A stretch of DNA of 64,000 bases from Puniceicoccales bacterium (GCA_031275345.1 JAISOW010000005.1:413-64412); one strand, 5' to 3'. Positions 942 through 1,556 are shown, counted from the stretch's first letter. A program made the numbers and translations. Notes: generated by a model from the letters alone, not told the origin.

Positions 942-1556
942 ATGATGCGTGATATAGGTAATCGTATTGGCAGCATTGTCTTTTCAAATGTCAGCAATGC
1001 GTTCTGTCCCGATATCTCTGCTAATTCTGGGTCAGATGCGATACCAACCAAGTCGGAGGCAGTGTTAATGGTAGTGACTGCCGCACTCCTACGCGCGATT
1101 GGCACCGTAGGAGTGCTTCTGAAAGTGATAACGTGGCCCTTTCTGTTTGCCGTTGCATGTGGGGCCATGGCCGTGCGGGGGGAAAAAATTTCTGATTTGA
1201 CAGACAAAATTGCCGACCAATTTAGGCCAGAAAGCGAATCGACGAGTGTTGAAGAAAATTCACCTGCCGGCGGAGATCAAACGGTCGTTGAATCCTCTCA
1301 AACAGAATCTTCTAACAAAGCAGAATCTTTTGCCGATTCCTTTTTTGTAAAATTCGCGCTCCTGTTCACGCTCGAAAGAGGGCTTTCGCAGGCAGCGGAT
1401 AAGTTGACGGCACAATATGAAAAAACATTCCCTTCCGATTCGGCAGATATCAAAGAAAACGAACAGCCAAATTCCCAGGAAAAATCTGCGAGTGAGTTAT
1501 TAAATGAACCTAAATCCCATTATAAAACACCTAATGAGCTCCTTGATGATATATAA
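942..1556 (+). CDS. Hypothetical membrane protein with a bilobed hydrophobic hairpin (Inc-like)
   Basis: 204-aa ORF with an ATG start. AVLMVVTAALLRAIGTVGVLL-K-VITWPFLFAVACGAMAV forms two adjacent hydrophobic lobes, followed by an acidic, Ser-rich tail. No family recognised. Confidence 0.5.
   Translation: MMRDIGNRIGSIVFSNVSNAFCPDISANSGSDAIPTKSEAVLMVVTAALLRAIGTVGVLLKVITWPFLFAVACGAMAVRGEKISDLTDKIADQFRPESESTSVEENSPAGGDQTVVESSQTESSNKAESFADSFFVKFALLFTLERGLSQAADKLTAQYEKTFPSDSADIKENEQPNSQEKSASELLNEPKSHYKTPNELLDDI

Follow-up and report, generated by a model that had tools for sequence, protein, structure and literature searches.

Inc-like transmembrane-effector candidates among low-GC, lineage-specific genes of a termite-gut Puniceicoccales bacterium

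Inclusion-membrane (Inc) proteins, which have been described as specific to Chlamydiae, are defined by a hydrophobic domain of 40–60 amino acids (aa) comprising two transmembrane (TM) helices of 15–32 aa, joined by a loop of 3–22 aa that is always shorter than 30 aa (Dehoux et al. 2011, PMC3048545). In most TM effectors of type III secretion systems (T3SS), Incs included, two TM regions form such a hairpin, and the N-terminus and C-terminus both lie in the host cytosol (PMC9993115). In this study, we have analyzed a stretch of 64,000 nucleotides (nt) from a Puniceicoccales bacterium (GCA_031275345.1, JAISOW010000005.1:413-64412; hereafter the window), in which seven open reading frames (ORFs), among them the focal one at 942–1556, encode proteins with a hydrophobic block close to the N-terminus. 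These proteins are best called Inc-like TM-effector candidates, and not Incs.

The sequence-only reading that had drawn attention to these ORFs placed all of them correctly, and the three peptides that it quoted are found verbatim. Kyte-Doolittle analysis, combined with inspection by hand for block shape, agrees with its description in several respects: six of the ORFs carry one N-proximal hydrophobic block each at the claimed place, the block of 5529–7424 is weaker, never attaining the threshold of 1.6, and a long soluble remainder follows the block in each protein. No strong TM segment besides the block is found in any of the seven. Numbered from the longest ORF, the blocks start 24–67 aa from the N-terminus, as follows:

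942–1556, plus strand: focal ORFan, 204 aa, GC 0.45; block aa 40–78 (39 aa), nt 1059–1175, followed by an acidic Ser/Glu-rich linker
5529–7424, minus strand: 631 aa; weak hydrophobic pair aa 43–68, nt 7221–7298, below threshold, followed by an acidic linker
8412–10364, minus strand: 650-aa ORF; block aa 59–93 (35 aa), nt 10086–10190, with central Ile-Pro, followed by a polar linker
24894–25319, plus strand: ORFan, 141 aa, GC 0.44; block aa 51–92 (42 aa), nt 25044–25169, the clearest bilobed domain
26810–29989, minus strand: ORFan, 1059 aa; block aa 47–75 (29 aa), nt 29765–29851, with Arg, Glu and central Tyr-Pro, followed by an acidic linker and a large helical region
31815–34295, minus strand: 826 aa; block aa 24–49 (nt 34149–34226), 10-aa loop, second lobe aa 60–78 (nt 34062–34118)
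54315–55412, plus strand: 365 aa; strongly hydrophobic block aa 67–95 (29 aa), nt 54513–54599, with central Pro

The bilobed, Inc-like shape that had been attributed to the whole set was overstated, as it holds for three of the seven and not for the other four. Two helices as in the published Inc definition are recognized in 942–1556 (21+1+17 aa, with Lys61 between the lobes), 24894–25319 (18+2+22 aa, with Pro-Pro) and 31815–34295 (26+10+19 aa); 8412–10364 is borderline (about 21+2+12 aa), and 26810–29989, 54315–55412 and 5529–7424 do not conform. The blocks of 8412–10364, 26810–29989 and 54315–55412, of 24–35 aa and with a central Pro, could be single spans or short re-entrant proline-kinked hairpins; judging from the sequence, 26810–29989 more likely has a single span than a hairpin, and the block of 54315–55412 is most simply read as a single TM span. 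Blocks of similar length are present in FtsQ, LepB and the prepilin encoded in the window. The block of 5529–7424 is too weak for its shape to be called. The N-termini of the candidates are Ser/Thr/Asn-rich by eye, a composition that is only suggestive of a type III secretion signal.

The seven proteins share an architecture, made of a leader, a hydrophobic block, usually an acidic polar linker and a soluble region, and do not constitute a family. No pair showed significant similarity in an all-against-all BLASTP comparison, by which the paralogy implied in the earlier proposal of an expanded family is rejected. The hairpin ORFs are also set apart by their composition, with a GC of 0.44–0.50 and a GC at third codon positions (GC3) of 0.41–0.52, against 0.54–0.62 and 0.55–0.68, respectively, in the housekeeping genes of the window, whose overall GC is ~0.53. 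All of them belong to a distinct low-GC class of about 10 genes, they are placed singly among housekeeping genes, and a TTGAC-type −35 box lies 5′ of most. In five of the seven, the linker after the block has a D/E/S/T/P/Q/N content of 0.51–0.66, compared with 0.32 in housekeeping proteins, and the acidic linkers (5/7) carry a net charge of −3 to −14. The term ORFan, as used in the sequence-only reading, is appropriate for 942–1556 and 8412–10364, which matched only themselves in a word-indexed search, and for 26810–29989, for which no relatives were found in scans of genome collections and metagenome contigs; it does not apply to 31815–34295, which has 31 distant homologues. None of the Pfam and NCBIfam families attains its cut-off in the hairpin proteins and, with no conserved housekeeping domain and only self or distant metagenomic matches, the set is lineage-specific in the way that Incs are.

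The architecture is enriched in the window. The detector used was strict, asking for a single block, 28 aa or longer and with no more than one charged residue, located in the first 150 aa of a protein devoid of any other TM core. It retrieved four ORFans and one prepilin among the 46 genes of the window, and 8 of 940 genes in a control of 1.31 Mb taken around dnaA in 75 other Opitutia/Verrucomicrobiota genomes. For the four ORFans the enrichment is ~10-fold (Fisher p = 0.0016), an approximate value given that the control is made of housekeeping neighbourhoods. In related termite-gut contigs, once the kinase-like family described below is set aside, 4 of the 48 genes are hairpin-like, a density equal to that of the window.

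Conservation of the hydrophobic module can be followed in the 826-aa protein encoded at 31815–34295. Its 31 homologues (26–36% identity) come from a full HMMER scan against 1.84 billion representative proteins, and lie on contigs from JGI samples 3300042619, 3300042620 and 3300042636, from Logan assemblies of sequencing runs adjacent to that of the window, and from the NCBI assembly GCA_031268315.1, whose accession lies in a series of termite metagenome-assembled genomes (MAGs). Scans of genome collections and metagenomes gave no relatives of this protein, and when the family alignment was used as a profile against the indexed database, the query's own entry was the sole match. N-proximal hydrophobic domains of 38–60 aa are present in at least 12 of the 31 homologues, and the hydrophobic module aligns with them together with an ‘F(G/S)FLRxFF’ helix, which in the window protein is the ‘FSFLRQFF’ helix of lobe 2. 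Since this N-terminal module is conserved in the homologues, the long form of the ORF is taken as real. AlphaFold2 (AF2) places helices at aa 20–50 and 55–82, with low confidence; an acidic linker (aa 79–150), a helical middle domain and the kinase-like domain (aa ~470–823) complete the layout. The family alignment has Asp658, Asn663 and Asp676 as invariant residues, as well as a GxGxxS loop with G521 and G523 (Gly-rich loop, nt 32709–32744; catalytic loop GQLDGHPGN...IDAG, nt 32262–32333), and the AF2 model obtained with it reaches a predicted local distance difference test (pLDDT) score of 85–98 over aa 470–823. The top PDB matches by Foldseek are all protein kinases (E = 2.5e-4 to 1e-3, with TM-scores of only 0.3–0.4), and the family profile gives weak matches to PDB sequences (best E = 0.013), aligned on GxxDxHxxN...IDxG, which are almost all PI3K, PI4K, Vps34, mTOR or DNA-PKcs, that is, PI3K/PI4K/PIKK. 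On the basis of the invariant residues, the AF2 model, the Foldseek results and the PDB profile matches, we conclude that the C-terminal domain is predicted to adopt a kinase-like fold with a PI3K/PI4K-like catalytic loop, in which the bilobal fold, the Gly-rich loop, the catalytic Asp...Asn and the metal-binding Asp of kinases are recognized.

The claim that several of the ORFans carry enzymatic domains has support for two enzyme-like domains, the kinase fold and a CX5R phosphatase motif. In 5529–7424, the C-terminal CX5R motif HCKAGVGRS (aa 523–531, nt 5832–5858) aligns with the active site of Cdc14B, the best PDB match (E = 2e-4), and Pfam DSPc is found with E = 1.5e-4 and 22 bits, against a curated cut-off of 33.5; the protein is a candidate Cys-based phosphatase. 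The motifs of 8412–10364, GAAGNCAFF (nt 9630–9671) and GHW (nt 8466–8492), resemble an ovarian tumour (OTU) cysteine protease by eye only. No Pfam or PDB sequence match was obtained, the single-sequence AF2 model was unusable (pLDDT 44.6), and this identity was not confirmed. In 54315–55412, Pfam detects a weak HEAT-repeat signal in the C-terminal region.

The position of a block relative to the N-terminus depends on the start codon chosen. In public gene calls, 31815–34295 begins at aa 70 (NCBI) and 8412–10364 at aa 48 (JGI); such starts remove the hydrophobic module or shift it to the N-terminus, and annotation-based screens would therefore overlook the architecture. The NCBI entry LBP65_02380, ‘MAG: hypothetical protein [Puniceicoccales bacterium]’, is a shortened form of the 31815–34295 protein. 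For 8412–10364, the true start is likely Met28 (nt 10283), the first ATG downstream, because the GTG start falls within a promoter-like sequence, TTGTAA-N18-TATAAA. A sigma-70-like TTGGCC-N17-TATCAT lies just 5′ of 24894–25319, and one automated gene call exists for 942–1556.

The link to type III secretion that had been drawn from a single gene of the window is borne out by that gene and, in addition, by the surroundings of the kinase-like family in related contigs. The gene is the following:

63093–63779, minus strand: sctL, non-flagellar T3SS stator, at the window edge (TIGR02499; Pfam FliH and T3SS_SCTL)

Its product scores 111 bits with TIGR02499, above the cut-off of 78.7, and the remaining T3SS genes of this genome lie outside the window. 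An injectisome, as expected for T3SS TM effectors, is represented by SctL in the window and by SctJ/K/V/X/Y in the related contigs. Four longer contigs of homologues (L086–L089) were available for the analysis of neighbourhoods. In L087, a homologue of the kinase-like protein immediately adjoins sctL-sctK-sctJ, and the SctL encoded there is 69% identical to that of the window. L086 has three paralogues in tandem, together with a bilobed ORF of 566 aa, within 10 kb of sctV, sctX and sctY, and in L088 two tandem paralogues are near a CesT/SicP-like chaperone gene. In L089, the neighbours of a homologue are three further bilobed ORFs and a gene for a ubiquitin C-terminal hydrolase (UCH). The GC of the hairpin genes is below that of their neighbours in three of the four contigs (L086, L087, L088) and mixed in L089.

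Other details of these contigs were also observed. About 6 kb separate the paralogues of L086 (10001–17298), which measure 788, 829 and 725 aa, from sctV/sctX/sctY, with a phage terminase-like gene and the 566-aa bilobed ORF in between, and an autotransporter gene is also near the kinase-family homologues. In L089 (GCA_031268315.1, JAIRXK010000026.1; 14514–19502), a 154-aa bilobed ORF is directly 5′ of the UCH (PF00443) gene, after which there are two paralogous ORFs of ~570–590 aa, each with a 60-aa N-proximal hydrophobic domain.

A chlamydial origin is rejected by the comparison of DnaA. The DnaA of the window is 69–74% identical to that of termite-gut ‘Puniceicoccales bacterium’ MAGs and 46–57% identical to that of other Opitutia/Verrucomicrobiota; from these matches, and from the NCBI label ‘Puniceicoccales bacterium’, the organism is assigned to termite-gut Puniceicoccales, phylum Verrucomicrobiota, and is not a chlamydia. 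A ‘Nucleococcus cluster’ of termite-gut Verrucomicrobia includes nuclear and cytoplasmic endosymbionts of protists (PMC8204192) and, by analogy with it, the termite-gut relatives of the window suggest a protist host.

How the candidates compare with chlamydial Incs (IncA–G and the predicted CT/CPn Incs) can now be specified. Both have an N-proximal bilobed domain with central turn residues (Pro/Gly/Lys), recognized in three of the seven candidates; in both, the members lack mutual sequence similarity, are lineage-specific and evolve rapidly, range in size from about 140 to >1000 aa and are encoded by scattered genes, with some tandem hot spots, in a T3SS-bearing genome. Unlike Incs, the candidates belong to Verrucomicrobiota, most have a long acidic low-complexity linker, and two carry enzyme-like regions, where many Incs have typical coiled coils. 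Moreover, no inclusion or vacuole is known for the organism. The sequence-only reading, which took them as Inc-type hairpin effectors, was right in the architecture and the T3SS linkage, and not in the phylum or the family relationship.

Membrane-anchored enzymatic effectors have precedents in the chlamydial Cdu1/ChlaDub1 and in TM effectors of Legionella. Cdu1/ChlaDub1, a CE-clan protease, is anchored in the vacuole membrane by an N-terminal TM segment, its catalytic domain being exposed to the host cytosol; the candidates resemble it in the N-proximal anchor and the putative catalytic domain, with a different fold. Bacterial phosphoinositide-kinase effectors are also known, namely Francisella OpiA and Legionella LegA5, MavQ and LepB, which are delivered by type VI or type IV secretion systems and are not hairpin-anchored. 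Like them, 31815–34295 would be a putative effector with an atypical kinase domain, whose loop resembles the PI3K/PI4K GxxDRHxxN...IDFG, although Foldseek puts ordinary protein kinases first and the likeness is drawn by description only. The T3SS TM effectors of Proteobacteria (Tir, EspZ, SseF, SseG and SteD; PMC9993115) share the two-TM hairpin, and they depend on a CesT-class chaperone, a CesT/SicP-like gene being found near the L088 homologues; the candidates differ from them in being unrelated in sequence, much larger and endowed with putative catalytic domains.

The explanation towards which we lean is that the candidates are T3SS-delivered effectors anchored in host membranes. According to this model, the low-GC, fast-evolving, lineage-specific genes would encode effectors that the bacterium injects into the cells of a eukaryotic host, for which a gut protist is the most plausible candidate. 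The polar leader of 20–65 aa would act as a secretion signal or chaperone-binding region, and would be followed by the hydrophobic element (three proteins having a two-helix hairpin, and three others either a single span or a short hairpin kinked at a proline), then usually by an acidic, Ser/Pro/Gln-rich flexible linker, and finally by the soluble region, with a PI3K/PI4K-like-loop kinase fold, a CX5R-motif region, a weak-HEAT region or other content. The proteins would be exported unfolded via the injectisome, insert into the host membrane through the hydrophobic element and, by means of the linker, position the catalytic domain on the cytosolic side of the membrane, where it would act on host lipids or proteins. 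The architecture, its enrichment, the composition, the predicted kinase fold and, for one family, the conserved module and the nearness to T3SS genes stand on the analysis, whereas we infer that the proteins are secreted, that a host membrane is what they reach, how they are oriented in it and what they act on. A number of points weigh against the proposal. Only three of the seven blocks show the two helices of the published Inc definition, and the host and lifestyle are drawn only from the termite-gut origin of the relatives. No homologues were detected for five of the seven, and sctL has none of the hairpin genes of the window as its neighbour. The kinase and phosphatase sequence matches fall below curated thresholds. 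Finally, the intermediate hydrophobicity predicted by published work for T3SS TM substrates, and reported for those of Proteobacteria, was not detected: a comparison of 16 proteins had given marginal values and seemed to favour it, and the argument was dropped after a larger one, in which a crude measure showed no lower TM hydrophobicity for 19 candidates with respect to a crude set of 289 control TM proteins.

This last result is what ordinary bacterial inner-membrane proteins would give, in which the block would be a signal anchor of the signal recognition particle (SRP)/Sec pathway or a hairpin in the inner membrane, with soluble domains that would serve the bacterial envelope or the cytoplasmic face and would not act in a host. 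The lengths of three blocks (26810–29989, 54315–55412 and 8412–10364), comparable to those of FtsQ, LepB and prepilin, point in the same direction, as does the public start of 8412–10364, which puts its block near the N-terminus as in a signal anchor. However, a kinase requires ATP and hence could not function in the periplasm, the blocks begin well inside the proteins, preceded in 31815–34295 by a region conserved in homologues, and the low GC, the rapid divergence, the eukaryote-type domains and the proximity to T3SS and chaperone genes also weigh against it. We consider this explanation unlikely. Still more doubtful is that the genes are horizontally acquired cargo, or encode effectors exported without a T3SS (through Sec and outer-membrane vesicles, or by another system), the block retaining the protein on the vesicle or the surface. 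The anomalous GC content, a tRNA 3′-half-like remnant just 5′ of the 942–3280 pair, the autotransporter and phage terminase genes near the L086 homologues, and the distance between the hairpin genes of the window and sctL would all fit such cargo, whereas the location of the kinase-like family near T3SS genes in three independent contigs and a hairpin architecture that fits known T3SS TM effectors would not; neither the window nor the related loci showed a further secretion system dedicated to effectors.

A heterogeneous coincidence has also to be taken into account, namely that these are unrelated orphans, some with mis-called starts, each with a chance hydrophobic stretch and with no common mechanism. 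The seven indeed lack mutual similarity, their blocks vary in length and shape, five of them are without homologues, and the 141- and 204-aa ORFs have in their favour only their length together with, respectively, the promoter-like sequence and the automated call. Nevertheless, Incs too are devoid of mutual sequence similarity (PMC6925127), and chance would have to account for the ~10-fold enrichment (p ≈ 0.002), for the equal density in related contigs and for a common linker composition and GC class. We regard such a coincidence as improbable, the least credible of the explanations considered, and retain host-membrane-anchored T3SS effectors as our working model.

The low-GC class also takes in three genes without an anchor, and perhaps a fourth, whose products are candidate soluble effectors:

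1772–3280, minus strand: low-GC ORFan without hydrophobic anchor, GC 0.48, no Pfam match
10481–11344, minus strand: low-GC ORF with a weak class-3 lipase signal (GHSMG), without anchor
57414–58715, plus strand: low-GC ORFan, 433 aa, without clear anchor
42160–43113, minus strand: lineage-specific ORF without anchor, intermediate GC of 0.53

Besides the ORF with the lipase signal, another of the four is rich in Ser, Pro and Gln and contains an internal near-repeat. Between the hairpin ORFans 24894–25319 and 26810–29989 there are two small ORFs whose products are very hydrophobic, 25592–25957 (minus strand, 121 aa, ~3 predicted spans) and 26080–26493 (plus strand, 137 aa).

The housekeeping set of the window comprises a murC-murB fusion, ddl, ftsQ, an rpiB-glyA fusion, cysS, def, dnaA, a pilT-like ATPase, a prepilin, fabV, glgB, gap, atpB, nadK, tpiA and lepB. 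The two fusions are found at 15836–18394 (minus strand), with MurC-like and MurB domains in one 852-aa ORF, and at 19652–21370 (plus strand), with RpiB and serine hydroxymethyltransferase in one 572-aa ORF. At ~601–640 (plus strand), in a stretch without a convincing gene just 5′ of the low-GC ORFans 942–3280, GATGGTTCGAATCCATCATCCCTTGCCA resembles a tRNA T-arm and acceptor 3′ strand with CCA; neither ARAGORN nor Rfam reports a complete tRNA there, and this remnant may be the scar of an integration. The window as a whole gave no tRNA, tmRNA or Rfam match, and its enrichment in DnaA boxes is not significant. A 36-nt tandem repeat of 2.4 copies (61783–61868) lies in an intergenic or uncertain region between lepB and radC, adjoined by a 12-nt repeat (61760–61784).

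In literature searches, we found no reports of Inc-like proteins or T3SS effectors in Verrucomicrobia. Beyond the model proposed here, it is conceivable, as a tentative reading that we hold to be possible rather than probable, that a termite-gut Puniceicoccales lineage, perhaps of protist endosymbionts, remodels a membrane compartment of its host through a large, rapidly diversifying set of T3SS-injected hairpin effectors, the Inc strategy having arisen independently in the sister phylum Verrucomicrobiota or having been inherited from a host-associated ancestor of the Planctomycetes-Verrucomicrobia-Chlamydiae (PVC) superphylum. Under that reading, one of these effectors would be a kinase tethered to the membrane and provided with a PI3K/PI4K-like loop, alongside a candidate phosphatase and perhaps a ubiquitin protease. 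If true, these proteins would provide a second, independent system in which to study how hydrophobic effectors bypass the bacterial membrane and reach that of the host, would bear on the antiquity of T3SS-mediated host manipulation in the PVC superphylum, and would be the first molecular handle on the interaction of verrucomicrobial symbionts with their protist hosts in the termite gut. The family combining a hairpin, an amphipathic helix, an acidic linker and a kinase-like domain, with about 30 members and tandem arrays near T3SS genes, is a concrete candidate in this regard.

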